Below, piece by piece: positions 1 to 52,087 of a DNA stretch of 64,000 nucleotides. The position numbers and the translations under genes were made by a program. Location of the stretch: positions 64,001-128,000 of IMG/VR virus record IMGVR_UViG_3300028591_000006; one strand, 5' to 3'. This DNA comes from a virus (Duplodnaviria; Heunggongvirae; Uroviricota; Caudoviricetes). The number at the start of each line of letters is the position of its first letter. Position 1 is the stretch's first letter. The notes beneath the pieces were generated by a model that searched no databases, was not told the DNA's origin, and saw only the letters and a list, made by a program, of their open reading frames with translations.

Positions 1-930
1 AGTGTAATAAACTTTTCCTCTAGCATCTCTTACCTGGATAGACATTCCTTCAGGGAGTTGTGGTTCAATTGCTGCTAATGCTTTTTGTATACCATCTTTT
101 GTGAACATCTTTGCATAAAGAAGTCTATCAGTCTGACCCCAGTCATCACCGACAGGGAAATAACGTTTATCTTTAGCCTGATTATCTTTGGAATAAAGGA
201 AAAGATTAATTCCATCTGGAACTCTGTTAATCCAATCTGTTGAAGACTTGATTGGTTTGCGAGAAGAATTTACTGGAACTACTTCGCCATCAATATCATC
301 TGCTAAATCGCAAGCATCTTCATAGCTCATAGGAGTTCCGATAACACCACCGTTCTGGTCAAGAACATTGTATTTAATTCCAAGCATTGGTTTTTGGTTT
401 CTACGAATTGCCTTTTTAATACCCTTTGAAATATCTTCTCCAGACATACTTTCCATCTTATTTTTCAAATCACTTACATCATTTTCAAGAGAAGATTTCA
501 CCGGTTTCTTAGCAGACTGAATATAAGAATCAACATCATACATGTTGTTTCCTTTTTCATACTTATCACGAAGCATATCCATTCCGCCACCAGCTTCAAA
601 GAAATTATCGAGGAAATCTCTTACTCTATTCTGTGTACCTTCAAAAGGATATTCAGGACTTTCTTTTGCATAATTCCAAGAATAAGCAATGAGGTCTTCG
701 TATGTAGCACCATTTGTAAAATGTACCTTTACATAACAAAATCCGGTGTCCATGAACTCAAAAAATAAACGAACAGAATAGTCATTATGCTCTGCCATAA
801 CCCAGGAATATCCCTGACCATAACCTTCTTTCATCCACCACCCATTGTATGTTGGACCTACATTTTTATAAACAATATTTGCTGTATCATAAGCAAGTTC
901 TTCAGATTCCATAGAAGATTTCACTAACAT
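1..930 (-). CDS. Partial (runs off window edge) late modular protein of the IKS-motif family; putative internal head/cargo protein
   Basis: Missing from ORF track; hand-translated open frame from ATG at 930 (MLVKSSMESEELAY...) to the edge; linkers YIQSAKKPVKSS and VPVNSSRKPIKSS; late promoter motif at 959-968. Confidence 0.75.
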   Translation of the reverse strand, partial: MLVKSSMESEELAYDTANIVYKNVGPTYNGWWMKEGYGQGYSWVMAEHNDYSVRLFFEFMDTGFCYVKVHFTNGATYEDLIAYSWNYAKESPEYPFEGTQNRVRDFLDNFFEAGGGMDMLRDKYEKGNNMYDVDSYIQSAKKPVKSSLENDVSDLKNKMESMSGEDISKGIKKAIRRNQKPMLGIKYNVLDQNGGVIGTPMSYEDACDLADDIDGEVVPVNSSRKPIKSSTDWINRVPDGINLFLYSKDNQAKDKRYFPVGDDWGQTDRLLYAKMFTKDGIQKALAAIEPQLPEGMSIQVRDARGKVYYT

Positions 931-3598: not shown

Positions 3599-4504
3599 TT
3601 ATTTGTCTTTCATACCCTTGGAAATACTCTGTTTTGCTTTCGGACAGCGACCGGGAACAAATCCTTCCGGACATTCGAACTGCATTACTTCTATGATTCC
3701 ATTGTTATAGTAATGACGACCTTTATTGGCTTTGCTGATGTTAGCTTTACATTTATCAGATTTGGCTATTCCACGATGTCCATCAGCAACTTTCTTAGTA
3801 TGAGCCTTTCTTTGTTCTTCGGAAAGATTATTCCACCAGTCTTTACGGCTTTGACTTCTTTTTTCAGAACCAGCAGCTGTATTGGTTCTTCCTGGTCGGA
3901 AACCATCCGGACATGATTCTGCAACAGTATCTATAATACCATTAGTATACCATTTCTTACCTTTGATTTGTTTAAGAGATTTATTACGTTCTGAATTGAT
4001 TCTTCGTTGTTCCTGACCTTCGGCAGACATCCAGTAAGCACTAATAGAATTTTTATGTTTTTGTTTGGATTCTTCGGAAAATACCTGTTTCTGACGGGCT
4101 GCTGATATTTTCTTTCTTATTTCTGCACCTCTTTCACTTGCGTGTAATTTTCGTATAGATTTTGAAATCTTTTCATTTACAGTTTCTCCAAGATTTCCAC
4201 CATTACCACCATCCGAGATATTATAATTGGCAAGACCTATAGAACGATAATATTCAATATATCTCTTCTCAAGAATATCAGCATCTTGTTTTGTAATACA
4301 TTTCTCAAGAACTTTTTTCTCGAAATTTTCTATGCCATATTTAGGTATTGCATACTCTAATAAAATTTTACCAGAGCCTAAATACCCATCTGTTTCAGGT
4401 GTTTCTCCTTTATAAAGAGTTCTTTGACCAATATAATTGTGTCCATTGATTTTGTTAGTCGTTACGTAAATGTAATGATACAATATTACCCTTTTCATAA
4501 GCAT
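3599..4504 (-). CDS. Free-standing GIY-YIG homing endonuclease with NUMOD3-like repeats
   Basis: YIYVTTNKINGHNYIGQ...YLGSG...E..YI...YNIS.GG.GG catalytic pattern; HS/FSEE..K repeats; WYTNG..CP.GF repeats. Confidence 0.9.
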   Translation of the reverse strand: MLMKRVILYHYIYVTTNKINGHNYIGQRTLYKGETPETDGYLGSGKILLEYAIPKYGIENFEKKVLEKCITKQDADILEKRYIEYYRSIGLANYNISDGGNGGNLGETVNEKISKSIRKLHASERGAEIRKKISAARQKQVFSEESKQKHKNSISAYWMSAEGQEQRRINSERNKSLKQIKGKKWYTNGIIDTVAESCPDGFRPGRTNTAAGSEKRSQSRKDWWNNLSEEQRKAHTKKVADGHRGIAKSDKCKANISKANKGRHYYNNGIIEVMQFECPEGFVPGRCPKAKQSISKGMKDK

Positions 4505-4716: not shown

Positions 4717-6177
4717 TTACTCGATAACGAACTTAAGCATTGAATTTTCGAATGCACGGGTACCACCAAGCATACAACCCATACCCTGAATAGAGTGCAG
4801 GTCATCCATAGCAAGAGGGTTTGTAGCGTAGAGAGAAATGAATGAACCTGTAAGATAAGATGCATCCATATCATCACGCTTGTATCCCATAAGTGCGGTA
4901 TCTTCATCGAAGTCCTGGTTCTTAAGAACCTTGAAACGATTGAAGAGTGTACCGGCAACATAAGGTCCGATTGGTTCAGCAGAGTAAGAGTTAGCTGACC
5001 AGATATCCTTGCTGTTGTAGAAGTTAGCAGAAAGAGATTCGATAATGTTCATCAACTTAGAACCTGCAACAATCCAGTTAGCACCAGAACGTGCAATGTT
5101 CTTACGAATTTCGTTGCTTGCTTCAATGATTGACTGAAGAACAGACATGTTATGTTCAATCTGTGAAACTCCAGATGGAAGGATTGAATTCCATGTTGCT
5201 GTACCTTCTGCACGAGCGAGCATTTCGTCAAACATATTACAGCTGATTTCCTTGTTAATCAGACCACCAAGGCTTGTAGAAAGAACCTGGTCGATATCAT
5301 ATCCGTTGAGAACCTGCTTTGCAGCATAGAAGTCATCAAGAGAATATGTTGAGCGGAGTCTGTAAGGATTTGCTGTGATTGTCTTAGACTTCCATTCAAG
5401 AATAATCTGAGCAGGTTTCTTACCACCAACATAGTTATCAGGTGTTGCACCCCAGTCATAGCGGTATTTGATAGAAACTTCAGCACCACTTGCAGCGGCA
5501 TTGAGTGTAATTGCAACATCACCACTCTCGTAGTCTACTGTACCTGAATCAATTACATTAAGAACAGGAGTAATCTGTCCTTTTCCGTCATCAAGTGTGA
5601 ATGCGTTAGCAACACCAGAAACTGTGATTTCAAGTGTGTTAGGGAGCATTGTTCCTTCAGGAGCAGTAAATGTTACATCTGTTCCAGATACAGTTGCATC
5701 AGCACCTACCTTGTTTGTTGTGTAAGTGTTATCCTTAGCCCAGTTTGTTGCACCAAGAAGAGCTGTACCCTTTGTGATACCGTTGCGGTTTTCGTTAGCG
5801 GTAATCTGTGGATAGAAGATTGGTGATTCTTTTGTTGGCATTGGCTGAACGCCGCAAACTTCTGTGTAAGCGAAGTTTGGAATCAAAATAGAATAGAGGT
5901 TGTAAAGGATAGAAATTGGATTGTCTACCTTTGAAATGTCTGATACGGCAGACTTAATTTCTTCTTTTGATTTCTTGCCGGTAGTCAGCATTACGTTTGT
6001 AACCTGCTGAAGAGAGTTCTTAAGAACTGCCTCTTTTTCCTTAGACATCTTTGTTCCCCAGCGTTTTGCATATGCGTCTCTTGACTGTGCAATGAGATTG
6101 TTATGCAAAGGGTCAACTGAAGAATTAATCTGTGTAATGGTTGAGTTGAGTTTAGCCTGTGCTTCTTCTCTTGTCAT
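4717..6177 (-). CDS. gp23: Major capsid protein, T4 gp23-like, with inserted beta-rich domain
   Basis: VCGVQPM..P..IFY motif, EINKEI, ANWIV.., motif order of gp23 family; 486 aa; near prohead protease. Confidence 0.9.
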   Translation of the reverse strand: MTREEAQAKLNSTITQINSSVDPLHNNLIAQSRDAYAKRWGTKMSKEKEAVLKNSLQQVTNVMLTTGKKSKEEIKSAVSDISKVDNPISILYNLYSILIPNFAYTEVCGVQPMPTKESPIFYPQITANENRNGITKGTALLGATNWAKDNTYTTNKVGADATVSGTDVTFTAPEGTMLPNTLEITVSGVANAFTLDDGKGQITPVLNVIDSGTVDYESGDVAITLNAAASGAEVSIKYRYDWGATPDNYVGGKKPAQIILEWKSKTITANPYRLRSTYSLDDFYAAKQVLNGYDIDQVLSTSLGGLINKEISCNMFDEMLARAEGTATWNSILPSGVSQIEHNMSVLQSIIEASNEIRKNIARSGANWIVAGSKLMNIIESLSANFYNSKDIWSANSYSAEPIGPYVAGTLFNRFKVLKNQDFDEDTALMGYKRDDMDASYLTGSFISLYATNPLAMDDLHSIQGMGCMLGGTRAFENSMLKFVIE

Positions 6178-6314: not shown

Positions 6315-7607
6315 TTAATCGTTCAGATAATTGCAAAGTTCCTGACCAGGATTCCAGATGACTTCAAACTGCAAAGTTCCAAGACTTTCATTATAATATG
6401 GGTCATCTCTCTGGTCTTCAGGAGCAAAACTTGTATCACCAGTTGAAAATTCTACAAAATATTCACCTTCATATGTATCATCCATAGTTACATAATAACT
6501 ACCATTTGTTGTTTCAGCATAACTTCTACAATTATCTTTAAATTCATACAAAGGAATTGTATCATTTACCTTACCAACTTCAGGAACATCACTTCTTGTA
6601 ATTCTTACAAAACAATCAGAAGTTGCATTATGGATTTCTGAAATCTGAGCTGCGGATTTCACAGCCTTTTTCTTTCCTTTCTTAGACCTTCCATGACATC
6701 CGGATTCGATAGGATTTGAAAGACCAATATATTCACGAATTGTATCCGGTTCAAACCAGATTAAATCATTCAGTTCGGTCATTGTCGGTGGATTTCCTTC
6801 TTCACGGAAAAGCAGCTCTTCACAGGCATTAAGAATATCATCAGGGTCAGCACCATCTTCAATCATACTGTCGAACTGGTCCTTACCGCCTGACCAGAGT
6901 CTTGTATAAAGGTCATTGCCGCTGATATCTTCTGTAACGTACATTGACTGGATTGGGCGACGAGAATTTGTAAGATAATCCTTTGCAATCTGTGCTTTAC
7001 TATCTGCTGTGAATCCATGCTGACGAAGGAACTCACGTACATGACGAATTGTTGTCTGAGAATAATCCCAATCAGGATAAAGAACAGGTTTACCATCAAC
7101 AATCTCTGCAACTAACGTACCGTAAGAATACAACTTATCATCATCGAACTCAGCTTTATTGTAGAAACTTGCTCTTGAATCATGCTGTGGTTGCAAATAT
7201 CCACGAGCCATAGATTGTACAGGTTTCTTTTTACCTTTCTTCTTTCCGCAAGCTGACGCAACAAGTTTTCCACTATTCAGTTTACGTGCAATCTGAGCAG
7301 CCTGAGTATTGAACCATTCAGCATCAGATTCTCCCGGATTGGAAACTTCAGTATCCCATACACTTCCACTTTTTGCTTCATAAGGCATTACAAAATCCCA
7401 TTCATAATCGCTCATTGCTGAATTACTAGCAAGAACGGCAATCTTCGCACAAACTGTAGGTTCATCAAATCCTTCACCCATGCCAAATGCAAGACAAAGT
7501 TCATCACCATTATTCAGATTATCAAGTGTGATATAATAAGTAGATTCAGGACTTGCAGATACGCTTTCTACACCTTTCTGAATATCCTGTGGAGTTATTT
7601 TCTTCAT
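6315..7607 (-). CDS. Acidic multi-module late protein, IKS-motif family (putative head cargo)
   Basis: Basic linkers KKKGKKKPVQS, RRPIQS, PIES..KKGKKKAVKSA separate about 4 modules; late promoter 7637-7646. Confidence 0.75.
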   Translation of the reverse strand: MKKITPQDIQKGVESVSASPESTYYITLDNLNNGDELCLAFGMGEGFDEPTVCAKIAVLASNSAMSDYEWDFVMPYEAKSGSVWDTEVSNPGESDAEWFNTQAAQIARKLNSGKLVASACGKKKGKKKPVQSMARGYLQPQHDSRASFYNKAEFDDDKLYSYGTLVAEIVDGKPVLYPDWDYSQTTIRHVREFLRQHGFTADSKAQIAKDYLTNSRRPIQSMYVTEDISGNDLYTRLWSGGKDQFDSMIEDGADPDDILNACEELLFREEGNPPTMTELNDLIWFEPDTIREYIGLSNPIESGCHGRSKKGKKKAVKSAAQISEIHNATSDCFVRITRSDVPEVGKVNDTIPLYEFKDNCRSYAETTNGSYYVTMDDTYEGEYFVEFSTGDTSFAPEDQRDDPYYNESLGTLQFEVIWNPGQELCNYLND

Positions 7608-8072: not shown

Positions 8073-8765
8073 TTATCCTTTTCTTCTTGTAGCATTATCA
8101 TCTACAAAATCTTTACCAAAAGCATAAGAATGTGAATTCCTACGTCTAGGTTTAGTATAAAAATAACCGTTTACATTGCCATTATCATCTCTTGAAACGC
8201 TTTTAGCTTTATCTTCAAACATACCAACAGTATCAGGTGTAGCATTAGGATTACTAGGATAATCAAACTCAGCTTCACCATTGAATCTGTGTCTGTTATT
8301 TCCATTTCTCATAGAATCATCTTTCAATGCCGGAGAATAAATAATACATTCCTGTTTGAACGGAATTGCAAAACTAGCGTCAAATTCTCTCATAAAATCG
8401 TTCATAACCTGACGGAAATCTTTATCATCAGTCATATTGATAACCATGTAAGAATGTTCATTATCTTCTTTCGATTTATCTTGAGGACCTTGATAGCCAC
8501 CATACACAGATGTAACTTTCCAACCATAATAATCGCATAATTCTCTAAGACCATCTCTCAAAGCAATTTCCATCTCCTGATTAGTATATTCCCCATCATA
8601 ATCAGGTTCTTTTCTCTGGCTTTTATCTGCTGTCAATACAACAGTTTCATGGTCATACATATATGATTTCATACGATTATAGCTTGCACTATAAATTTTA
8701 TCTTTACCGAGAATTATATCAAGACTCTGTTTATTAAGTTCATGTCCGTTCATGTGTTTTACCAC
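8073..8765 (-). CDS. Hypothetical phage protein
   Basis: 230-aa ORF (probable start M5 behind GGTGG). Confidence 0.7.
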   Translation of the reverse strand: MVKHMNGHELNKQSLDIILGKDKIYSASYNRMKSYMYDHETVVLTADKSQRKEPDYDGEYTNQEMEIALRDGLRELCDYYGWKVTSVYGGYQGPQDKSKEDNEHSYMVINMTDDKDFRQVMNDFMREFDASFAIPFKQECIIYSPALKDDSMRNGNNRHRFNGEAEFDYPSNPNATPDTVGMFEDKAKSVSRDDNGNVNGYFYTKPRRRNSHSYAFGKDFVDDNATRRKG

Positions 8766-8811
8766 CTATTATAATTATAGAAAACCCACCATTTTCAGGT
8801 GGGATGCATCT

Positions 8812-11661
8812 TTACTTATTCCAGCGTTTGAATGCTTCAGGAGTACAAGGATTACCCCAGGTACTTCGTGTCTTTTCAGAAATCACACCGTCTCTTTCAA
8901 GTCCGTCCTTATACGATTCCCAATCCTGTTGCATTTCATAATAATCATTCCACTGTCCGGCAGCCTTAAAATCCTGTACAGCCTGTCGGAAAGTAAGACC
9001 AGATGTTACAGATTCACGGGAATTGTCAATCTTATGATACATTGTTTCGCCATTAGAGAAACGTGCTGTTACACCAAGTTTCTGCCATCCGTAATCTTTT
9101 ACAAGAGTATCGAGATAAGTATTAATTTTTGCTGCAAGATTATCAAATTCGGCATCTGACAAATCTTCGGTATTTCCACCTTCTTTTATCTCAATCCAGA
9201 TACCTTCATAGTATCCGTCACGGATTTTAATACAGAAAGGTGGGGCATAATCTGGGTCACGATAATCATCATAAAGCGGAATATCCATTTCAGTTGCAAG
9301 GTCTGTGGCATTATCAATTTCATCTCTATATTCAAGAGAATCAAGGTCATAATCACGTTCCTCTGTGTCTACATCATTTTCTTCATCATATACATAGTTC
9401 TCAGCAACATATGTTACAAGTGGGAAATCATATCCATAAACATTATCATTGCTGCCGAAGTTTGATGTTCCTGACTTAATAAGACGTTTAGATTGTATTT
9501 TCATTTTCTTTTCTCCTTTCTTACCTGACTGAATATTTTCCGTTCCATTCCATAAGTAATCCGGGTCAATTACTACATCAAATCTGTTTCCAAACTCAGG
9601 ATTTATACCCCAGATAAAACTTTCTGAATTTAATGACATATCATCAATCCAATAAGAATTAAATCCGCTCGGCTCTTCTTCTTCCGCATACAGATTAAAT
9701 GCAAAACCACTTGGAATGGCAAAAGGTGCTTCATTAGATGGAATTTCTTCAGCAACTGATTCCGCAATAGATTTAAGACCTTCTGGATAAATTGTCAGGG
9801 TGTGACCAAAATCGTGTTGAAAGAAATCATCCTGACACATCTCTATGAATTCTTCATCTGTATCACGATGATATACCTCATAAGCGTCTGGCCAATTATC
9901 ACCTTCTTCTCTTTCGAGATATTTTAACCACTGGTCAAATCCAGCACGAGTATAAAGAGTTCCATCATCGGCAAGAAGTAGGGGTTCGGTAAAACTTATT
10001 CCGATGTCACCAATCTTTTCTTCTACTTCATCCATATCATATTCCTGGTATTCCCAGCTGCCATTTGCAGATTTAATTACTTTCATATTCTTATCTCCTT
10101 TTGATGATGTCAGGCAGATTTTTTCAAATCCACTCATGGCATCCCAGTCTTCAAGCAAATCATTATCATCAAGAATGTTATAGACTTTATTCAGTAATGG
10201 AATGTCATCTTTAAGAATTCTCTTATTGATAGTTCTGTAATCCTGTTTATCATCAATAACATAGAAAAGCAAATCATCAAGCTGCTTTAATTCTTCATCG
10301 CTCAAAGAATTTCTTACAACATCATATTTGGTAAAGTCTTCCTCTTCACCATACGCTTTAGTAATATAACCGAGAACGATTGATATACCATCTCTTTCAC
10401 CTTCGCTGAGAGATGCAGACGATTGTATTTTCATATTATTTCTCCTTGAAGAACCGATGTTTTTCTTAGAAGATGTAACCTCATTAAAGGCTTTAAGTGG
10501 CGGAGCTTTTACACCTTCCGGTAAACCATTTGGATATAAATGCTTATTAGCATAAACATCATATTCATGATTCTTCATCTGTTCGATAGCATATTCGAGT
10601 TTTGTAGAGAGTGATTTGATATCTCTTTCCCTGAAAGAATCATCTTTTTTCCATTTCTCAGCAGCAAAAGTATATTGTTTTTCAGCAACAGTTTGTTTGT
10701 TATGAAATACTGTGAACCATGACGAATTAAAAGAACTACCGTGTAAGGTTGTGTATAAACTCCACCCATTCTTAAAATAAGCTGTCACTGAAATTTCAGG
10801 TATACCACCATTAATGCGTCTGCTTAAATGTATATCTGCTCCGTAAGGTTTTAACAAATCCTCAATAACTTGTAACATCTCTCTTTCAGCTTTATCATAC
10901 ACATCAACTGTTTCTAAACTAGAATAATCTATTGCCGATTTAATAATATTATTCATAATCTCAAATCCTTCTTTGTACTGTTTCTGATATTCAGTCCAGG
11001 CATCACCAAGACCATCTATAGCCTCAGCCATATTACCAACTTCGCCAAGGTTCCATTCCTCATCATAACAGAATTTCTTGGCTGAGTTATAATCTCTCTC
11101 GGTCATATCACCAAACCGTTCTGTAAGCTGTTCAAGGTAATAGTCTTTATAGTCTTCACGTGTTTTCATATTTCCACCTTTCAATGCACTTTCAATAACA
11201 TCCCAGTCTTCTTCCGGATAATTTGCAACTCCATAAAGCTGCCCTTCAACTCCCAAATCCTGGAGAAGAATTCCATCAGTAATCTTGTAAGCCGATACAT
11301 CTTCAATATCTACACCATAGGTATCAGCCACATCTTCCGGATTATCACAAGCCCAGATTGCGTAATTGAAATTGTCTTTTGAGATTCCATATTCGGTAAG
11401 TTTGTTTATGATATTGTCTACGAGAGCATAGATGGCATCTTCATCTGCTGCAATGCTCTCAGGGTCTACATTGTCTGTAACTGAGTCAAAGTCAACTTCC
11501 GGGTAAAGACGCTGAAGGTCGTTTATCACTCCGTCATAGTTTCTGACCTGACCATCCTGAAACATTTCCCATGCAAGTACATTGCGTACAGAAGTGAATG
11601 AATCAAGATTAGATATGATATCGCTGCGATAGACTGTCTTATTTATACCTGTTGTTTCCAT
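8812..11661 (-). CDS. 949-aa acidic polyprotein with five internal in-frame RBS+ATG; IKS-motif family
   Basis: Internal KGGNMKT, KEGFEIMNNIIKSA, RRNNMKIQSSA, KGDKNMKVIKSA, KKGEKKMKIQSK; late promoter 11666-11675. Confidence 0.8.
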   Translation of the reverse strand: METTGINKTVYRSDIISNLDSFTSVRNVLAWEMFQDGQVRNYDGVINDLQRLYPEVDFDSVTDNVDPESIAADEDAIYALVDNIINKLTEYGISKDNFNYAIWACDNPEDVADTYGVDIEDVSAYKITDGILLQDLGVEGQLYGVANYPEEDWDVIESALKGGNMKTREDYKDYYLEQLTERFGDMTERDYNSAKKFCYDEEWNLGEVGNMAEAIDGLGDAWTEYQKQYKEGFEIMNNIIKSAIDYSSLETVDVYDKAEREMLQVIEDLLKPYGADIHLSRRINGGIPEISVTAYFKNGWSLYTTLHGSSFNSSWFTVFHNKQTVAEKQYTFAAEKWKKDDSFRERDIKSLSTKLEYAIEQMKNHEYDVYANKHLYPNGLPEGVKAPPLKAFNEVTSSKKNIGSSRRNNMKIQSSASLSEGERDGISIVLGYITKAYGEEEDFTKYDVVRNSLSDEELKQLDDLLFYVIDDKQDYRTINKRILKDDIPLLNKVYNILDDNDLLEDWDAMSGFEKICLTSSKGDKNMKVIKSANGSWEYQEYDMDEVEEKIGDIGISFTEPLLLADDGTLYTRAGFDQWLKYLEREEGDNWPDAYEVYHRDTDEEFIEMCQDDFFQHDFGHTLTIYPEGLKSIAESVAEEIPSNEAPFAIPSGFAFNLYAEEEEPSGFNSYWIDDMSLNSESFIWGINPEFGNRFDVVIDPDYLWNGTENIQSGKKGEKKMKIQSKRLIKSGTSNFGSNDNVYGYDFPLVTYVAENYVYDEENDVDTEERDYDLDSLEYRDEIDNATDLATEMDIPLYDDYRDPDYAPPFCIKIRDGYYEGIWIEIKEGGNTEDLSDAEFDNLAAKINTYLDTLVKDYGWQKLGVTARFSNGETMYHKIDNSRESVTSGLTFRQAVQDFKAAGQWNDYYEMQQDWESYKDGLERDGVISEKTRSTWGNPCTPEAFKRWNK

Positions 11662-11772
11662 AAGAAAATATATAAATCAGAACAGCATACTTCCAAGGTA
11701 TTTATAATTGCATATAAGGACTTCATCAGTCTTATTATTGTCTACTCCATGACTTGAGTATTTCATATAAAT

Positions 11773-12219
11773 TCATTTTGTTTCCTTTAAGAAATCTAAA
11801 GAATCATCAACCATCTTTTGTCTTTCTTCTACAGACATGTCATTCCATCGGGGTTTTCCTTGGATTCCTAATTGAAGGAATATTGCCATAAGAACTTGCT
11901 TTGATATGCTGTTTCCTGATTGTTTATAGAGTTGACTCTTACTGTTCACCTTTGCAGCTTTGTTGAAATCCTCATCCGAGAATCCCATAAGTCTCCATGT
12001 CTCATTCTCAGTTAACTTACGGATAGCATATTTCTTACCCATTTCTTTATCTCCTTCTACGACCGGAAGTATAGCAGTCTTCTTACCTTCCGGGCGTGTT
12101 GTTATAGTCGGACATAATCCGCTCTTATCTACAGTTTTATTAAACGCATTTATCGTATCACCCGGTTTACACTCATTACTGAGTAATGTATCCCAGGCTT
12201 GTTCATAAAATTCATACAT
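11773..12219 (-). CDS. C5-cytosine methyltransferase C-terminal fragment (last TRD-like module plus motifs IX-X)
   Basis: LCPTITTRP module then IRKLT..E.WRLMGF..(IX) and LYKQSGNSI(X); internal AAGGAG-ATG at 12042. Confidence 0.9.
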   Translation of the reverse strand: MYEFYEQAWDTLLSNECKPGDTINAFNKTVDKSGLCPTITTRPEGKKTAILPVVEGDKEMGKKYAIRKLTENETWRLMGFSDEDFNKAAKVNSKSQLYKQSGNSISKQVLMAIFLQLGIQGKPRWNDMSVEERQKMVDDSLDFLKETK

Positions 12220-12427
12220 CTTCTTTAATGATAGAATCTTCCATTTCTTCAAGAATCATTATATCAAGAAACGACATTGTTGTAAGGGTTGGACAGATTT
12301 CAGGTGCTCTTGCTCCCCACGAACGAATATCAGAATATCTTGCCTTTACGGAATGCTTCTCATATCCTTTTCGTATCTGCTTACCGAATTCATTTCTTTC
12401 CTGTCGTAACAGATATATCTTCTTCAT
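12212..12427 (-). CDS. Free-standing TRD-like mini-ORF of split methyltransferase
   Basis: ICPTLTT motif; stop overlaps next start (ATGTATGA). Confidence 0.7.
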   Translation of the reverse strand: MKKIYLLRQERNEFGKQIRKGYEKHSVKARYSDIRSWGARAPEICPTLTTMSFLDIMILEEMEDSIIKEDV

Positions 12428-12572
12428 ATTCCAGTACCATATTATCTTTAGCAGCTGATGTTATGGTATTGCACAATCCGGTATAATTTATTTCGAGTTT
12501 CTGCTCAAACTTTTTATCAGAATTATCTTCCGGAGTTCTGCCACGCATTGCTACTATCAGATATTCTTTCAT
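12390..12572 (-). CDS. Free-standing TRD-like mini-ORF
   Basis: EQKLEIN..GLCNTITSAAKDNMVLE; ATGA overlap with HNH stop. Confidence 0.75.
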   Translation of the reverse strand: MKEYLIVAMRGRTPEDNSDKKFEQKLEINYTGLCNTITSAAKDNMVLEYEEDISVTTGKK

Positions 12573-12895
12573 ATTTCCTTTCTCATCTTTGCAGCGTGAC
12601 TCTGATTCTCATCATTGGTACACCACTCAAGATTACTTACCTTATTATTCAGTTTATCAAAATCTATATGGTTTATCTGCTCCTTATTGTCCGGATTCGG
12701 AATAAAAGCCAGAGCCACAAGACGATGAACTTTCTTATGCTTACGCACATTATTCTTGTATAAATCAACAAGGGCATAACCTTTTTCAGTAATAAATGGT
12801 TTCAGAAGTTTACCACGTTTAACACCATAAACTTCACCATCCTTAGATACACAGTACAGACCTTCATACCCCGGAATGTCTTTCCACTTTTTCAT
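12569..12895 (-). CDS. NUMOD4-HNH homing endonuclease inserted in the TRD array
   Basis: WKDIPGYEGLY.VS..G.V (NUMOD4) plus VHRLVA.AFI.N....INHID..K.NN...NLEW (HNH). Confidence 0.92.
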   Translation of the reverse strand: MKKWKDIPGYEGLYCVSKDGEVYGVKRGKLLKPFITEKGYALVDLYKNNVRKHKKVHRLVALAFIPNPDNKEQINHIDFDKLNNKVSNLEWCTNDENQSHAAKMRKEI

Positions 12896-12982
12896 CTTCT
12901 TTCTCCCGCTCAATCAATATGTAAGGCATGTGCTCGCCATCAGATTACCATAAAAGATAATCTCACTTTTCTTCTCGTTCAT
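12887..12982 (-). pseudogene. Degenerate TRD-like module (internal deletion/frameshift)
   Basis: MNEKKSEIIFYGNL in one frame, HMPYILIERE in another, only about 30 codons in total. Confidence 0.4.
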
Positions 12983-12998
12983 CAATTTCCACCAGATA

Positions 12999-13136
12999 CT
13001 ATGGATGAAGTACAGTCGAAACGGTAACACTCACTGTATCAGAGCTGTACACCCTATCCTGATTATAATATTGCGTTCCACCATTGCTGACCTTTTCACC
13101 AAGTCCGCCAAGCATTACCGGTTCAATATCATTCAT
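12999..13136 (-). CDS. TRD-like mini-ORF ending at TAG, probably prematurely
   Basis: Not in ORF track; MNDIEPVMLGGLGEK...QDRVYSS..VSVTVST VLHP*YLVEIDE; GGTGG SD, ATGAATGA overlap. Confidence 0.65.
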   Translation of the reverse strand: MNDIEPVMLGGLGEKVSNGGTQYYNQDRVYSSDTVSVTVSTVLHP

Positions 13137-13317
13137 GACATTCCACCATTATTTTTGGCTGCAAGTTACCACCTGTACAACAAGGGATGGTAGGACAGAT
13201 ACCCCATTTGGAATAAACACGATTAGCACTTTCAAAGGTATGGTCAATCGTGTGGTCCATACAGGCGAGAATTATAACTTCAGGTGAAACTTCTCTCTCT
13301 AAGCAATTTTCATTCAT
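13129..13317 (-). CDS. TRD-like mini-ORF, in frame, (AG)4 near start
   Basis: ANRVYSKWGICPTIPCCTGGNLQPKIMVE; (AG)4 at 13293-13300. Confidence 0.75.
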   Translation of the reverse strand: MNENCLEREVSPEVIILACMDHTIDHTFESANRVYSKWGICPTIPCCTGGNLQPKIMVECHE

Positions 13318-13618
13318 ATTCACAAACTATTACGCAATTACTATTATCAGCTTCAATACCTTTCCAGTATCTTGCCAAAACCGTATTTGCAATCTCCTTA
13401 TTTATATCAATTATAGAAATATCATTAACACTTAAAAACTTACCGTTCAAACTTCTTCTAATGGTTGCTGGGTAATTACGGCATTTGAGCAATAAGTTCC
13501 CATTCCTTTCCAATCCCTTGCAAGCAAGGTCATCGCTATGTCCGTTTCCTTCAGAAATTTCGTTCCCACTTCCGAAAGATAACAGGTCATTACATTGTTT
13601 GTTTGTAGTATTATTCAA
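13310..13618 (-). CDS. Dual-frame TRD ORF; the 0-frame ends in a TRD-like module
   Basis: C-terminal IDINKEIANTVLARYWKG; TTG start overlapping upstream stop, GGAG SD. Confidence 0.65.
   Translation of the reverse strand: MNNTTNKQCNDLLSFGSGNEISEGNGHSDDLACKGLERNGNLLLKCRNYPATIRRSLNGKFLSVNDISIIDINKEIANTVLARYWKGIEADNSNCVIVCEYE
13447..13614 (-). CDS. Hidden TRD-like module in the +1 frame of ORF 13310-13618
   Basis: Hand translation: ..MTCYLSEVGTKFLKETDIAMTLLARDWKGMGTYCSNAV..*, clearly paralogous to neighbouring TRDs. Confidence 0.7.
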   Translation of the reverse strand: MILQTNNVMTCYLSEVGTKFLKETDIAMTLLARDWKGMGTYCSNAVITQQPLEEV

Positions 13619-13874
13619 TTTCTATAACTCCATTGCTTGGTATCTGTCCGCTACCAAAGCCTTTATAATCCCTTGCAAGAATTGTCATTGCAACATCTAC
13701 ATCTACTTTATAGACTTTTCTGTAGTTACAATAACAACACCATTTCCTATGCTCTGAATCTTGCTTATTCCTCTGTTTTCCCTTGCGATTATACAGTTCG
13801 CAACTTTCAGCAGCTTTGGATTCTTGATACTCAAATCTATCGGAATAATTACTCTCTCTAGCCGTTTCTGTCAT
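13611..13874 (-). CDS. Dual-frame TRD ORF; the 0-frame ends in a TRD-like module
   Basis: C-terminal VDVAMTILARDYKGFGSGQIPSNGVIE; TAATG overlap, AAGGTGG SD. Confidence 0.65.
   Translation of the reverse strand: MTETARESNYSDRFEYQESKAAESCELYNRKGKQRNKQDSEHRKWCCYCNYRKVYKVDVDVAMTILARDYKGFGSGQIPSNGVIEIE
13703..13870 (-). CDS. Hidden TRD-like module in the +1 frame of ORF 13611-13874 (no own start)
   Basis: Hand translation: QKRLERVIIPIDLSIKNPKLLKVANCIIARENRGISKIQSIGNGVV..*. Confidence 0.7.
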   Translation of the reverse strand, partial: QKRLERVIIPIDLSIKNPKLLKVANCIIARENRGISKIQSIGNGVVIVTTEKSIK

Positions 13875-14068
13875 TATTCCACCTTTACAAGCACATCCGC
13901 TATGCCGCCCTTACTTGCTGTAATGGTCTTGCAGATTCCATAGATTGAGAAAACAGAACCGTCATATCCGTCATGCAGACCATATATGTTGCCAAGATAG
14001 ACAGCATTTTCAAAGTCTTTTTCCTGAGTCCTCTCTCTCTGATTATCTGCAACTTCTTTCTTACTCAT
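13874..14068 (-). CDS. First TRD-like mini-ORF, in frame, (AG)5 near start
   Basis: YLGNIYG...GSVFSIYGICKTITASKGG; ATGA overlap with catalytic fragment; (AG)5 at 14031-14040. Confidence 0.75.
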   Translation of the reverse strand: MSKKEVADNQRERTQEKDFENAVYLGNIYGLHDGYDGSVFSIYGICKTITASKGGIADVLVKVE

Positions 14069-14799
14069 TCAAGTTTTCCATCATCAATAAGCTGCTGAAT
14101 AAGTTTCTCAGCTTTCTCCGATTTTATAAAATAAGAATCAGCCACTTCTTCCTGAAGGAAGTCTTTCATAACATACTTCAAAGGAATCTTTTTAGGGAAC
14201 TCAAATTCTATAAAATCTTTTGAAAGAATTGATACACCAAAACAGCGTTCACGATTCTGCGGAATACCAAAGTCCTTGGCATTCAAATCTTCGTAATAAG
14301 TATAATATCCACGAGATTTAAGATAATCGAGCCATTTATTAAGTTCGGGAAGATTGCTCTCAGAATGACATTGCGGAACATTTTCCCAGATACAAATATC
14401 AGGTAACTGTTCATCCGGAAGTTCTGTAAGAAGTCTTTTTACTTCAAAAAGTAAAGAAGATGTTGTTCCGCTACCTTCTTTCATACCTTCCATTTTACCG
14501 GCCACTGAAAGCGATTGGCAGGGCCAAGAATAAAACATCACATATGTATATTTATCCTTATCTACAATTTCCAAGTCAGAACCATGAATCTTAGTTATAT
14601 CAAGAACTGGAAATTCTGTACCATGAATTGCATTATAAGATTTAATTGCAAACTCATCAAACTCAACCAACTTGTAGCGTTCAAAATCTACACCTATAGC
14701 TTTCATAGCCATAGATTGGGAACCCACACCTCCGAATAATTCTAGCAATCTAATTTTCTTTTTGATTTCCGGTTGTGGCAGGTCAAATAAAAAACCCAT
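14065..14799 (-). CDS. dcm: C5-cytosine DNA methyltransferase N-terminal catalytic fragment (motifs I-VIII)
   Basis: LLELFGGVG (I), SWPCQSLSVAG (IV, catalytic PC), IWENV (VI), LNAKDFGIPQNRER (VIII). Confidence 0.95.
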   Translation of the reverse strand: MGFLFDLPQPEIKKKIRLLELFGGVGSQSMAMKAIGVDFERYKLVEFDEFAIKSYNAIHGTEFPVLDITKIHGSDLEIVDKDKYTYVMFYSWPCQSLSVAGKMEGMKEGSGTTSSLLFEVKRLLTELPDEQLPDICIWENVPQCHSESNLPELNKWLDYLKSRGYYTYYEDLNAKDFGIPQNRERCFGVSILSKDFIEFEFPKKIPLKYVMKDFLQEEVADSYFIKSEKAEKLIQQLIDDGKLE

Positions 14800-14883: not shown

Positions 14884-15408
14884 TTATTTTCTAACAGACA
14901 TGCCACCAACCCTATCATACATGGGGTCGGAATCAAATTCTTCAGGGAAATCAATTCCAACAGTAATAGCATCAACAAGGGCTTTTCCAATATCACCCCA
15001 TTTATCAGCAAACTTTCCTGACTGATTACCGGTATAGAACTCAGTATCATAAATAGCGAGCTGCACCCTACCATTATCTCGCCATGTATCATCTGCCCTA
15101 CCCTGTAATTCCTGAAGAGCCTTAATGTCATTAGGATTATTCCTGTCGCCCCAGAAAGTAAGAACATAAGTATCATCATCATAACTTTCTGCAACGGCAT
15201 TACCAAACATCTTAACAAAGACATTTTCAATAAGAACATCTAATTCACGACTAGCTTCATTGAGTCTGTCACCATCTTTATCCCAGTCAAAATCCACTCC
15301 ATTATCTTCACGATAATTTTCTTCAAAAACATCCGTAAGGGTTGTAATATCTACCCCAATCATGATTCTGTCCGGATTATCATAATAATCTGATTTGATA
15401 ACTTTCAT
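14884..15408 (-). CDS. Acidic protein starting MKVIKSD, IKS-motif family
   Basis: N-terminus matches internal module starts of the 949-aa protein. Confidence 0.7.
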   Translation of the reverse strand: MKVIKSDYYDNPDRIMIGVDITTLTDVFEENYREDNGVDFDWDKDGDRLNEASRELDVLIENVFVKMFGNAVAESYDDDTYVLTFWGDRNNPNDIKALQELQGRADDTWRDNGRVQLAIYDTEFYTGNQSGKFADKWGDIGKALVDAITVGIDFPEEFDSDPMYDRVGGMSVRK

Positions 15409-15420
15409 ATTTATCTCCTA

Positions 15421-16332
15421 TTAAAACATTGGAATGGATTCATCATCTGCATCATATACAGGTGGTTCCTGTGGATTTCCATTACCTTCTCCAAGAAGTC
15501 CAAGTTCACGACCAGCTTCTTCAATATGCTCCCACATAACACCATAAATATACATACGGTAAGGATTAACATAAATTAAATCCGGATTTCTTGCAGATAC
15601 ACCGTGTGAACGATAAACATTATTTGCCATAAGACCTGATGGTGCCCATTTCTCGCTATAAGGAATGCTTGTCTGCATCTGATATTCAATTTCATTATTA
15701 CCTAACCAGAGACAACCAGTTTCAAAATAAGGTTCGCCATCACAGAAAGCATGATATCCATATCCGTCAGTATCAAATTGATTTATATCTTCAAGATGCC
15801 CATCATCAATCGCCTTGTTTACAGCCTCTACCAAATCATCAGCGGATTTGAAACCATGTACAATGTCTTCACTTGTGTAAAGCTGCTCATGGAAAAGTTT
15901 CTGAGCATTGTCTTCGATATCAAAAGGATTTGCATAGAATTCAACATCAGCTGCCCCAGCTTCATACTTGTACATACTGTCAAGATATTCCGGACTTTCT
16001 GCAAATTCTTCTTCACCTTCCACCCATTCATCTACAGCTTCATACATAGCTTCAAGTGCAGTATGGTCAGCATCATAATCATTTAGATATTCATTAAAAT
16101 AATATTCAACATCAAAAGGCTGATTACGATATTCATTAAGTTTGGTTACAAGTTCATCCTGAGTTTCAAGCCAGTCGGCAAACTCATTGATAAACTCATC
16201 ATAGTAATGTTCTTTGTCTTCATTACCTGTTTCTGCAAACCAGTCAACATCAAAAATACCGGCTGTTTCAAGGGCATTCCTGATATTGTTGTATGCCGGG
16301 TCATATGGACTTAATTCCGATTTAATTAACAT
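15421..16332 (-). CDS. Highly acidic protein starting MLIKSE, IKS-motif family
   Basis: Start re-placed at ATG 16332 behind AAGGAG; downstream of protease. Confidence 0.7.
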   Translation of the reverse strand: MLIKSELSPYDPAYNNIRNALETAGIFDVDWFAETGNEDKEHYYDEFINEFADWLETQDELVTKLNEYRNQPFDVEYYFNEYLNDYDADHTALEAMYEAVDEWVEGEEEFAESPEYLDSMYKYEAGAADVEFYANPFDIEDNAQKLFHEQLYTSEDIVHGFKSADDLVEAVNKAIDDGHLEDINQFDTDGYGYHAFCDGEPYFETGCLWLGNNEIEYQMQTSIPYSEKWAPSGLMANNVYRSHGVSARNPDLIYVNPYRMYIYGVMWEHIEEAGRELGLLGEGNGNPQEPPVYDADDESIPMF

Positions 16333-16401: not shown

Positions 16402-17274
16402 TTATTTTTTGAAAAGTTTCTTAAGGTCTTTTGTATCAGGATATTTCTTAAGGGAACTCTTGATTGCCTTTGTACTTGGAAATCTGCTCTTAAGATTAAC
16501 TGAGCTTGCAAGAGGGAATGTCTTGGATTTATCGGCAAGGTGCAGACTGTTGAACATTGCTGCAATCCAGTCATTTGTAGGATTCTTTTCATAGGCTTCT
16601 TCAATTGCAGAAGTAATCTGCTCACGAAGACCTTTTTCTAGGTCAAGAACTGACTGTGTGAGGTCAGGAGCATTATCACTAGACGTACATAATTGTAAAC
16701 AACGTGGCACGGCAGGCACCGAAACCGTATCTTGCGAAACGGCAAGATATGTATCTTCGTCAACACGTGTGAGTCCATTTCCAATATCAATCAAATCACC
16801 AAATCCACGTGAAGATGTTCCAATCATACCTGTTTTTGCAAGTGAATATATGAGATTGCCCTTTGGAGTATCCATTAAATCAAGGTTGGAAAGTACCAAA
16901 TTATCATCACCAATCCAAAAGTCGTTTATGCGAATCACGACATTTTCAAGCAATACTTCCGAACTATCCCTATGACAATCTTCACCCCAGAAACAATGAT
17001 TATCCAAAGCAGCTTTAATAAAAGGATTTTCACGAATAGATTCCCAAAGTTTCTTACTAAAGACCATATTATTGAGAGTTGGTATGTCATAATATGCAAT
17101 AGGCATATTCTTCCAGGAATAAAGAACACCTGTATTGTCCATTTCTGGTTTGTAACCTTGCAAGATATAATCTTCTTGTTTCATCAAACCAGATTTAATC
17201 AGTTTACTTTTAGTATCAGAAAAAGTCTTAGCAGAAAACCAATTACCTTTAATCCATACATTATGTTGATTCAT
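16402..17274 (-). CDS. gp21: Prohead (capsid maturation) protease, T4 gp21-like
   Basis: PTLNNMVF, WGEDCH, DTPKG.L...L...G.IGTSSRGFG signature; late promoter 17311-17320. Confidence 0.9.
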   Translation of the reverse strand: MNQHNVWIKGNWFSAKTFSDTKSKLIKSGLMKQEDYILQGYKPEMDNTGVLYSWKNMPIAYYDIPTLNNMVFSKKLWESIRENPFIKAALDNHCFWGEDCHRDSSEVLLENVVIRINDFWIGDDNLVLSNLDLMDTPKGNLIYSLAKTGMIGTSSRGFGDLIDIGNGLTRVDEDTYLAVSQDTVSVPAVPRCLQLCTSSDNAPDLTQSVLDLEKGLREQITSAIEEAYEKNPTNDWIAAMFNSLHLADKSKTFPLASSVNLKSRFPSTKAIKSSLKKYPDTKDLKKLFKK

Positions 17275-17321: not shown

Positions 17322-18416
17322 TTATTTCTTCAACATACCTCGAACAAAGTTTTCCCCTGGACATTCTTTAGAACGAACATTCTTCTCACCATTATTCCAA
17401 TACAATAAACCCTTACTATCTTTAGGATGAAATTGTCCTTTCACAAAATTTTCCCCTGGACAATTAACAGCAAAAATATTTATTTCTCCATTTGTCCATC
17501 GCTCACCTTTCAAATCTGGAAATGTCCTGCCATATCTAAATCCTTTAGGACATATTGCTACAAGTATGTCTGATTTTCCATTTGTATACCAATGTTTATG
17601 AGTATGCTCATTTTCGCCTAATCTTCCACGAGTGAATCCATCAGGAGCTTCCTTAGCATGAATTTCAATCTCACCATTATTCCAGTAATACAATCCTGTA
17701 TTAACATCTCTTAATCTTTGCTTAATAGCATCACCTTTCTCACCTTCATACATCTTGCGTTTAATTTCAATTTGCTGTTTCTTTTGTTCTTCGGTCATAG
17801 GCACACCTTTATTCCAAGGTGTATGACCCATTAATGTTTTAGAAATCTTTCGTTTAGTTTCTTCAGATTTTGGACCTTTATTTATACCTTTACAACGTTC
17901 CGACATTTTTCTTTTCTGTTCTTCGGTAAAATGTTTTCCTCTCCATCGGCTACCCATAGCATAACGTTGTTCAGGTGTATATTTCATACCTCTTGTACCA
18001 CTATGCAATGACATTAACTTCTTGGTTTCTTCTGTATGATGTCTTCCTAAGAATGTAGGTCCACCTTCTCCGCCATCAGTCATATTGTATCCATAACATC
18101 TATCGTTCGAATGGTACATCATAATAAAGAACTTTTCCCAATAATCGAAGTCATAAGTTTCCAAGATTACTTCTGCTGTAAAATTCTCATATCCATATTT
18201 ATGAATTGCATTCTTTAACAACGTACCTTCACCAACATTCGATAGTAAATGTCCTCTCTTAAATCTACTGACAATATTCCTAGACTGTCCGATATAGACT
18301 TTGTGATTTATGATGTTTTCAATTTTATAAACACCTGAAATAATAACATTCGGCATTTTCTTAATTTCAAGGATTGAAATGGAATTGGTTAAAATTCTAT
18401 AATTATTATTAGACAT
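17322..18416 (-). CDS. Free-standing GIY-YIG homing endonuclease with NUMOD3 and WxNG..CP repeats
   Basis: ISGVYKIENIINHKVYIGQS..; GYNMTDGGEG; HTEETKK/KSEETKRKIS repeats. Confidence 0.92.
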   Translation of the reverse strand: MSNNNYRILTNSISILEIKKMPNVIISGVYKIENIINHKVYIGQSRNIVSRFKRGHLLSNVGEGTLLKNAIHKYGYENFTAEVILETYDFDYWEKFFIMMYHSNDRCYGYNMTDGGEGGPTFLGRHHTEETKKLMSLHSGTRGMKYTPEQRYAMGSRWRGKHFTEEQKRKMSERCKGINKGPKSEETKRKISKTLMGHTPWNKGVPMTEEQKKQQIEIKRKMYEGEKGDAIKQRLRDVNTGLYYWNNGEIEIHAKEAPDGFTRGRLGENEHTHKHWYTNGKSDILVAICPKGFRYGRTFPDLKGERWTNGEINIFAVNCPGENFVKGQFHPKDSKGLLYWNNGEKNVRSKECPGENFVRGMLKK

Positions 18417-18630: not shown

Positions 18631-19233
18631 CTACTCCATAGCCTGTTTAAGTTTATAAATTTCTTTATCATAATACTCAAGCATGGAATCAATCTTTGAT
18701 GAAACCATACTATCATAATTCTGTACACATTCAAGTATGTCGTAAATCATCTGAAGTCTTTCAAGAAGTAACGTCTGTGCAACCTGACCATTGGTATCGA
18801 ATGAACCATGCTCATCAACAAAATTCCAGTCACCCGGAAGAACATACATAGGAGAGATATCAGAATCATAGTTGATTGCTGTTTCAATCATATCATCATA
18901 ATAATCCTCGGTCTGCTCATAGAGTTCCTGGGCAAGTTCATGATAAGTATAGAATTCTGGTCCAGTACAAAGAAAATGAATTGTTCTCAAATCGAAAAAT
19001 AAAGCTGCAAGATACTGAGCACATTCAGACAAGGTATACAAAGGCTCAGGACTCTGATAATAACGTGATTCAATTACAGTTTCATAACCGGGAATGTGTT
19101 TCATAACTTCCTGTTTAGAACGATTACTGAAACCAGGAACCTTAGCAATCAGTTTGTTTGTCTGCCATGCTTCCCAGCCATTCTCACCTTTCTTGAGTAC
19201 CACATCTGATTTTAATTCTTTTCGTATTCTCAT
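18631..19233 (-). CDS. Ferritin/Dps-like four-helix protein with N-terminal extension
   Basis: DLRTIHFLCTGPEFYTYHELAQELYE....YYDDMIE fits Dps ferroxidase pattern; start at ATG 19233 just after late promoter. Confidence 0.6.
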   Translation of the reverse strand: MRIRKELKSDVVLKKGENGWEAWQTNKLIAKVPGFSNRSKQEVMKHIPGYETVIESRYYQSPEPLYTLSECAQYLAALFFDLRTIHFLCTGPEFYTYHELAQELYEQTEDYYDDMIETAINYDSDISPMYVLPGDWNFVDEHGSFDTNGQVAQTLLLERLQMIYDILECVQNYDSMVSSKIDSMLEYYDKEIYKLKQAME

Positions 19234-19249
19234 AAGAAAATATATAAAC

Positions 19250-19567
19250 CTAAACCACACCATTTTCCTTAAGGAATTTGTACATCTTCTGATTAAGGCT
19301 CTGCTGCTGAGAATCATCTATACCAATCTGTATGACAGTATCATTTCCATCAAGTTCGAGAATAACATCAGCTTCAGGACATTTCTCTTTCAGATATTCA
19401 GCAACCTTAAAACATACATATTCCCGCCAGCATGTAAATACAGTTCCGTCTATATCCACAGGTTCTTTACGGTCAAGTTTTAATGCCTCTATACACCCTC
19501 TGCTATGTTTCTTATAGATTGGATAAGATACTTCTATGATTTTCTCAACTAATACTTCAGTAGTCAT
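19250..19567 (-). CDS. Hypothetical protein
   Basis: 105-aa ORF. Confidence 0.6.
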   Translation of the reverse strand: MTTEVLVEKIIEVSYPIYKKHSRGCIEALKLDRKEPVDIDGTVFTCWREYVCFKVAEYLKEKCPEADVILELDGNDTVIQIGIDDSQQQSLNQKMYKFLKENGVV

Positions 19568-29175: not shown

Positions 29176-29203
29176 ATAAAATATATAAAAAGAATAAGAA
29201 GAT

Positions 29204-51999: not shown

Positions 52000-52087
52000 A
52001 TTAAAATATATAAAAAGAAAAGAACCCTACCTCGTAATTGAGATAGGGTTTTGTTTTAACAATATTTTAATTATTCTATTTTCTCCT

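Follow-up and report, generated by a model that had tools for sequence, protein, structure and literature searches.

In-frame internal starts give C-coterminal head-assembly proteins in lambda C/Nu3 and herpesvirus UL26/UL26.5. T4 gp21/gp21' and gp17' are annotated in the same way (AF158101 annotation), and the T4 head also carries internal proteins (IPI, IPII, IPIII, Alt), which are small and diverse, go with gp20/gp21/gp23-type head genes (PMC9026906, PMC3012670), form a defence-countering set with only the leader in common (PMC3012670) and bear a capsid-targeting sequence of 10 residues with an L/I-x-E ending (PMC9026906). Head-internal proteins such as phiKZ gp175 and SPN3US gp245 are cut at a short motif, often at several sites, by a diverged gp21 homologue (PMC9026906, PMC5694885, PMC10052503), and polyvalent proteins join many unrelated domains, with predicted delivery together with the DNA (Iyer et al. 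2017, PMC5512222). Here we analyzed a stretch of 64,000 nucleotides (nt), called the window below, which covers bases 64001-128000 of a virus record (IMGVR_UViG_3300028591_000006) that is complete at 142.8 kb and has terminal repeats, and in it an open reading frame (ORF) of 949 codons (8812..11661, minus strand) that strings together seven modules, A to G, with a whole-protein isoelectric point (pI) of 4.3. We propose, at a probability of roughly 70%, that this ORF encodes a T4 internal-protein-like head-cargo polyprotein which is cut by the phage's own gp21-family prohead protease.

The locus resembles the T4 internal proteins in its small diverse units, in its gp20/gp21/gp23-type head genes and in a short leader ending in a phi-x-X motif that also stands at the ends of the capsid propeptide and the protease. 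It differs from them in the Ser ending, the leader of 5-7 residues, the seven modules in one ORF and their mostly acidic character. Predicted cutting at several short motif sites in one protein by a gp21-family enzyme is a feature shared with phiKZ and SPN3US; the enzymes of those phages cut after Glu, and their substrates are not described as shuffled gene strings with start codons in the joints. While the nested head genes have single internal starts with shown products, this ORF has up to four candidate starts at module borders and cut sites. Like the polyvalent proteins, it joins several unrelated, independently occurring domains in one polypeptide and lies in a neighbourhood rich in anti-restriction genes (methyltransferases, and an S-adenosylmethionine (S-AdoMet)-lyase-family gene in relatives); unlike them, it yielded none of the signature effector, LPD or peptidase domains (Pfam for all modules, fold searches for D and F) and has no embedded metallopeptidase, the cutting being assigned to the prohead protease. 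Our literature search returned no paper combining prohead-protease processing with such polyproteins, and the predicted Ser at the cut position, together with joints that are intact gene starts, appears to be new.

Candidate cut motif and head-gene setting

The homology of its head genes places the phage, as a distant member, in the T4 assembly type. The portal matches Pfam Portal_T4 (E 6e-19), and the major capsid gene (4717..6177, minus strand) matches T4 gp23 (E 6e-12), the alignable part starting at its residue 99. The prohead protease gene (16402..17274, minus strand) belongs to the gp21 family by Pfam Peptidase_S77 (PF03420, E 4.8e-9), by phrog_207 (E 1.1e-18) and by BLASTP to T4 gp21 (E 3e-8), with the His and Ser blocks aligned. 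A Peptidase S77 protease and a T4-type head module, as found with T4-type head-internal proteins, are thus both present. The 949-codon ORF has the protease gene on one side and the capsid gene on the other, and in front of it stands a late-promoter-like motif that structural genes have as well.

The tripeptide [IVL]-[KQ]-S stands at every joint of the ORF except A/B, with the variant V-T-S at F/G. Eight copies of [IVL][KQ]S occur in the ORF (1.2 expected) and 105 in the whole genome (62 expected), the significantly enriched ORFs being grouped in the head-gene region. The capsid protein carries I-K-S (5950..5958, minus strand; residues 74-76, EEIKS/AV) at its predicted propeptide end, 23 residues before the gp23-alignable part; this site is kept as IKS in three relatives and reads IMS in a fourth, and its T4 equivalent is LTE/A. 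The protease carries LIKS (26-28) near its N-terminus and NLKS (261-263) and AIKS (271-273) in its C-tail, where T4 gp21 has a matching LIE near the N-terminus and is processed C-terminally (PMC9026906). As in T4-type head-internal systems, the same motif is therefore found in the capsid propeptide and in the protease, and at least five other late genes have N-terminal leaders with this ending (MKQYIKS, MAKRLIKS, MLVKS, MKVIKS, MLIKS). P2 varies among K, Q, M and T, while P3 and P1 hold; the spacing is that of T4 L/I-x-E with Ser for Glu. Leaders and joints end in [IVL]-x-Ser after 5-7 residues and not in L/I-x-Glu after 10. By analogy with T4, the Ser of [IVL]-x-S, in which x is mostly K or Q, would immediately precede the cut, and the Ile/Val-Lys/Gln-Ser tag is most likely where the head protease separates the pieces. 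A preliminary description of this DNA had suggested a protease-processed polyprotein; context and motif make this still the best explanation, with cleavage itself as its deduced part.

Six of the seven modules are acidic (pI 4.0-5.3). In order along the minus strand, they are module A (11170..11661; residues 1-164, pI 4.05), module B (10936..11169; residues 165-242, with a C-terminal end that is the leader-like MNNIIKS), module C (10420..10935; residues 243-414, pI 8.6, the sole basic one), module D (10069..10419; residues 415-531, an all-helical domain of a T4-type internal-protein-like family), module E (9472..10068; residues 532-730, pI 4.1), module F (8998..9471; residues 731-888, an alpha/beta domain and the most widely distributed module) and module G (8815..8997; residues 889-949, phrog_10097, or phrog_336 in free-standing homologues of about 70 residues). 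These borders are supported by a phmmer search of 1.8 billion representative proteins, in which 152 matches span residues 1-160, 165-249, 243-409, 410-525, 532-712, 720-880 and 889-949, singly and in many orders. The preliminary description had asked for relatives with separate modules, and the modules indeed occur alone and rearranged; module A, for example, stands alone or heads other architectures in P0033-P0040 and P0050. AlphaFold2 models of modules D and F reached a predicted local distance difference test score of 91.6 and 86.1, respectively, and in both the last 5-6 residues, which belong to the linker, are disordered.

Module D gives a link to T4-type leaders. About 30 free-standing homologues of approximately 115 residues have N-termini like MKxLxEYINE followed by Ala or Ser, which agree in length and in the L/I-x-E ending with the T4 targeting sequence, and neighbouring small genes in two short contigs begin with the same leader type. 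Because the conserved module D core starts three residues after MKIQS in our alignment, it seems that the leader was exchanged here while its position was kept.

The course of events that we infer, including cleavage and its scissile bond, packaging, ejection, internal initiation and a cargo role, would run as follows. Seven independently folding modules, six of them acidic, would be made late in infection as one polyprotein, loaded into the prohead and then cut apart by the gp21-family protease after the Ser of [IVL]-x-S. As with the T4 internal proteins, the pieces would remain inside the head and be delivered to the host along with the DNA; such packaging would agree with the late expression of proteins that have relatives acting at entry. 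The phage group would shuffle its cargo as cassettes made of a ribosome-binding site (RBS), ATG, leader and module, each either a gene of its own or joined in frame to the preceding cassette, and internal starts would probably also be in use to some extent. With the cut site at the end of the leader, the mature protein would be the same by either route.

Joints that are gene starts

The preliminary description had listed five in-frame ATGs inside the ORF, and we could verify all of them, each in frame. Joint A/B (11167..11181, minus strand, as are the joints that follow) consists of AAAGGTGG, 4 nt and ATG 11169 (residue 165) and lacks [IVL]-x-S. Joint B/C (10936..10970) has AAGGA, a weak and distant Shine-Dalgarno (SD) sequence, 9 nt before ATG 10956 (residue 236), which opens MNNIIKS. 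Joint C/D (10420..10447) is read in frame as SRRNNMKIQS and has AAGGAG 7 nt before ATG 10434 (residue 410, MKIQS). Joint D/E (10069..10100), read as KGDKNMKVIKS, has AAGGAG 8 nt before ATG 10086 (residue 526, MKVIKS) and is very similar to free gene 15408 of the same phage in its RBS and start. Joint E/F (9472..9534) holds three motifs (IQS, IQS, IKS) and AAAGGAG 8 nt before ATG 9504 (residue 720), followed by MKIQSKRLIKS. Joint F/G (8998..9021) reads NSRESVTS, with a degenerate V-T-S; its relatives read NSRKP followed by IKS, IQS or VTS.

Four of the six joints (A/B, C/D, D/E, E/F) are accordingly complete gene starts, with SD, spacer and ATG, read through in frame, and three of these four run on into a leader of the M-K-x-[IV]-[KQ]-S type. 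That four of the five ATGs open a leader (MNNIIKS, MKIQS, MKVIKS, MKIQS), and that the free genes 15408, 16332 and 930 open MKVIKSD, MLIKSE and MLVKSS, agrees with what the preliminary description had claimed, as does the 14-mer ATGAAAATACAATC common to sites 10434 and 9504. Of the ORF's 17 internal in-frame ATGs, 4 have a strong SD upstream; in the window's 50 other ORFs the count is 11 of 316 (binomial P ~0.002), and 30 of the 51 called starts in the window have such an SD. The 12 internal ATGs beyond the five listed all lack an SD. As in nested genes, in which an in-frame internal start has its own RBS, we found a canonical SD at 7-8 nt at 10434, 10086 and 9504, and AAAGGTGG at 11169. We found no relative that uses site 10956 as a true start, and its Met is Val in P0004.

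Among relatives, the joints are of two kinds. The ATG-free kind typically reads S-S-R-K-P-I-K-S, and the ATG-bearing kind reads SSRRNNM, KENNM, GDKNM or GEKKM followed by (K-x-x)-IKS, which is AAGGAG or AGGAG, a spacer and ATG translated in three registers. An SD is present in 15 of 20 ATG-bearing joints versus 6 of 50 ATG-free ones. Arg-Arg before the ATG is encoded as AGG-AGA in 10 of 10 cases, whereas the Arg of ATG-free joints is AGG in 0 of 38, being mostly CGT or CGC; AGG makes up 9.5% of the genome's Arg codons. The orthologous D/E joint keeps SD and ATG in two peptide registers, KGDKNM here and SRRNNM in L015.

Several of these starts open genes elsewhere. L003:397 is a true start (MKIQS plus module D) that lies after a methyltransferase gene and a terminator, with an in-frame stop 12 nt upstream; the starts L004:751 and L010:4491 are preceded by AGGAGAAATAAT, the same string as before ATG 10434; and module B opens a separate gene at L014:1568 and also in P0004, P0025, P0046 and P0059. 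On these comparisons, the SD-plus-ATG joints are real gene starts read in frame. P0018 was considered as a free gene starting at residue 720 and discarded, its contig beginning 13 nt upstream with the frame open. The preliminary description had suggested that formerly separate genes were fused by stop loss. For 11169, 10434 and 9504, relatives indeed start at the homologous position or at nearly identical RBS-ATG-leader DNA, with stops upstream (L014:1568, L003:397, L010:4491), although either fusion or fission may have come first. Simple stop loss was not supported: because about 50 nt with several stops lie between the separate genes, joining needs deletion or recombination and not a point change in a stop codon.

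The ORF's own first ATG (11661) has no SD at all. Ahead of it lies the decamer TTATATATTT (11666..11675, minus strand), resembling a late promoter, with a core TATATATT that ends 5 nt before the ATG. The decamer occurs 15 times in the window (0.75 expected); 14 of the copies lie on the coding strand and precede genes for the protease, the capsid and the tail, and we read it as a late promoter. It is followed after 4-6 nt by an SD-less ATG at six ORFs of the genome, the 949-codon one and five others (window 11666-11675, 19238-19247, 29179-29188 and 52004-52013; G000 49106 and 50587), and also in L005 (L005:994, 5424) and L016 (L016:~905). L016 has a promoter-adjacent ATG and, at a distance of 11 codons and in frame with it, an SD-led ATG. 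This pattern suggests leaderless late mRNAs in a T4-like phage, and since the core TATATATT abuts the first ATG and an SD is absent, the mRNA of the 949-codon ORF may be leaderless. The ORF listed at 18631..19317 probably starts at 19233 (MRIRKELKS...).

A nested, C-coterminal set of products is therefore plausible from the sites themselves, and selection may have kept the internal sites as working starts, an addition to the polyprotein reading whose chances we put a little short of even. The set would arise from a weak, possibly leaderless first ATG plus 11169, 10434, 10086 and 9504, and would fix the amounts of the modules. The internal sites closely resemble the true starts of the phage and its relatives, the first ATG without SD abuts the promoter-like motif, the D/E joint's SD and ATG are kept in two peptide registers (KGDKNM, SRRNNM), and T4 annotates in-frame internal starts in genes 17 and 21. 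Local RNA folding around the five internal sites is also weaker than over all in-frame positions (mean -6.1 versus -10.3 kcal/mol), which makes some internal initiation likely. At the 9504 joint, the codons for identical residues have a silent-site identity of 1.00 to L004 and L016, compared with 0.43-0.57 in the next 15-30 codons where the protein is equally conserved. Such frozen silent sites would fit a working start, but frequent recombination at the joint could freeze them as well, so that the nucleotide-level conservation of this joint could serve initiation, recombination or both. Against selection for starts, module E follows ATG-free joints in P0001, P0003 and P0004, and the ATG has been lost from some joints (for example, Ile replaces Met in L004 and L015, and Val does so in P0004), which indicates that an internal start is dispensable. 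The sequence SRRNNIKMQS is found at one joint of L004 (L004:3-692; residue 69 of an ORF whose start is L004:75); ATG and ATA are exchanged there, with Ile and Met swapped, so that the ATG lies 6 nt farther from the SD.

Recombination at the joints was surveyed by aligning contigs of four other metagenome runs to 8700-11900. Fifteen of the 16 listed loose contig ends fell within 30 nt of a border (9021, 9504, 10086, 10434, 10956, 11169 or 11661), zones that together account for 13% of the aligned region; one of these breakpoints lies at 9021, the F/G joint. One contig of run X4 jumps over 10969-11144, that is, most of module B, and contigs of runs X2-X4 keep about 60 nt around 9504 as an island of similarity between unlike flanks. 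These data suit a second explanation, to which we give a real but minority chance, namely that the SD-plus-ATG joints are silent leftovers of cassette shuffling, with only the first ATG in use and the joints acting as linkers, cut sites and recombination homology. Breakpoints gather at the joints, joint DNA is common to otherwise unlike contigs, and both kinds of joint precede the same modules. The retention of AGG-AGA in 10 of 10 cases speaks against silent leftovers, and in an SD-using host one would expect some initiation from a canonical SD and ATG that lie in A-rich RNA of weak structure. Separately, the DNA of module G and the end of module F is 100% identical to L016 (about residues 858-912) and to L004 (about residues 882-916), with 60-75% identity over the remaining parts of the gene; these stretches look like recent recombination tracts.

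Weighing the polyprotein reading

Several points weigh against a head-cargo polyprotein. The A/B joint (11169) has no cleavage motif, and the motif, just three residues long, also has three copies in the cytosine methyltransferase and stands outside module borders at 348 and 629 of the ORF. The leader of 5-7 residues is shorter than the 10-residue targeting sequence of T4. All characterised proteases of the family (T4, phiKZ, SPN3US) cut after Glu (PMC9026906), and Ser at P1 would be a new specificity for it. With no known family (Pfam, all modules) or fold (searches with D and F) for any module, the cargo function is guessed from analogy and from the genes nearby. The Pfam scan of the 949-residue protein gave no family at the curated cut-off (best E 0.008, 17 bits against a cut-off of 26 bits), and PHROGs and Pfam searches with the polyprotein and free-standing module homologues gave only phrog_10097 and phrog_336, both of unknown function. 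Fold searches with modules D and F (Foldseek and VIA-align against PDB; F also against BFVD) gave no convincing match; the best scores (Z 5.2 and 5.4, and two uncharacterised viral proteins at template modelling scores of 0.44-0.45) were taken as no assignment. ESM Atlas feature searches with modules F and D returned sub-threshold matches or none, and tblastn against isolate phage genomes found no match for the whole protein, module D or the free-standing homologue P0096.

These points leave room for an uncut multidomain polyvalent protein, in which [IVL]-x-S would be a flexible linker, a recombination joint or another enzyme's site, and packaging would not be needed. Packaging or transfer in one piece is known for phage polyvalent proteins (PMC5512222). 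We consider this improbable here, for the motif also stands at the capsid propeptide end, at the protease termini and in leaders of single modules, where a linker role would be senseless, and module D homologues of other phages carry T4-type cleavable leaders at the same place. Least credible of all is that the SD-like strings are a by-product of linkers rich in Lys, Gly, Glu and Arg, whose codons resemble SDs, with Met arising by chance: site 10956 would fit, but the SD is kept in three reading registers, and ATG-free joints of similar peptide type (S-S-R-K/R) use CGT or CGC and never AGG, while every RR-N-N-M joint has AGG-AGA.

Returning to the cut polyprotein, we tentatively extend it to a bolder proposal, which we hold for less probable than its failure: one joint of about 30 nt would serve at once as RBS, start codon, capsid-loading or cut leader, and recombination homology, and the gp21-family protease would have switched from Glu to Ser. 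Any module, whether expressed alone, from an internal start or in the polyprotein, would then yield the same mature protein; head cargo would be predictable from sequence; and a weak first start with strong internal starts would set the amounts of the modules. Should the tag prove to be the cut site, a Glu-to-Ser change of specificity would be within reach of a T4-family head protease. The joints show that an RBS and start codon can stay intact while being translated as a linker, so that polyprotein and operon could be interconverted. Proteins carried in the head and injected with the DNA are a phage's first tools against host defences and are very hard to spot from sequence; the three-residue tag of the capsid propeptide, protease and late genes, which covers at least 8 genes and more than 20 modules in this genome, gives a testable means of listing the cargo of an uncultured rumen phage group. 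The widespread orphan families of modules D, F and G thereby obtain a first functional setting.

Neighbouring genes and occurrence

On the minus strand, the genes follow in the order protease, two free leader-bearing genes, a multi-part cytosine methyltransferase, the 949-codon ORF, two small genes, a 430-residue polyprotein and the capsid gene; further along the strand, past the capsid, come a 432-residue polyprotein, a 603-residue protein, the portal and a 1102-residue protein. The two free genes are a 174-residue one with leader MKVIKS (14884..15408, minus strand) and a 303-residue one with leader MLIKS (15421..16332, minus strand), the latter directly after the protease gene, in a scaffold-like position, and at the same place in L005 and L010. 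The 430-residue polyprotein (6315..7607, minus strand) has the ATG-free joints KKPVQS, RRPIQS and KKAVKS, and the third polyprotein (1..930, minus strand; 432 residues in the genome) has leader MLVKS and the joints KKPVKS and RKPIKS (twice). The 1102- and 603-residue late proteins, in which no Pfam family was found, have leaders MKQYIKS and MAKRLIKS and lie before the window (G000:C1 51300-54608 and 60231-62042; L006 6300-9608 and 15231-17042); both stand next to the portal gene and are candidates for large head cargo.

The occurrence of this DNA was followed in public runs as assembled contigs, which speak to presence only and not to transcription, starts or ends. The whole stretch is present in one run only, a sheep gut metagenome that is possibly its source, with smaller shares in rumen and bovine gut runs. 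Two contigs from RNA libraries match 9278-9428 and 10616-11010, which places these pieces in a metatranscriptome library.

In relatives (L014, L015, L016, L003 and the P0011 contig), the polyprotein genes lie amid C5, D12 and EcoRI-like methyltransferases and one S-AdoMet-lyase-family gene, often beside HNH genes; 11773-14799 of the window can be compared. Judged by gene content, the surroundings look like a variable anti-restriction island inside the head-gene region. A 226-residue gene (8073..8753, minus strand) just after the 949-codon ORF is kept in L016 with the same N-terminus, MNGHELNKQS. Its similarity to S-AdoMet lyases is faint (Pfam E 0.017; BLASTP E 0.02 to the L015 family member), and we do not claim it as one. 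Three genes of homing-endonuclease type (GIY-YIG/phrog_314 and an HNH/NUMOD4-like ORF among them) are spread across the head-gene region, at 3599-4504, 17322-18416 and 12569-12913.

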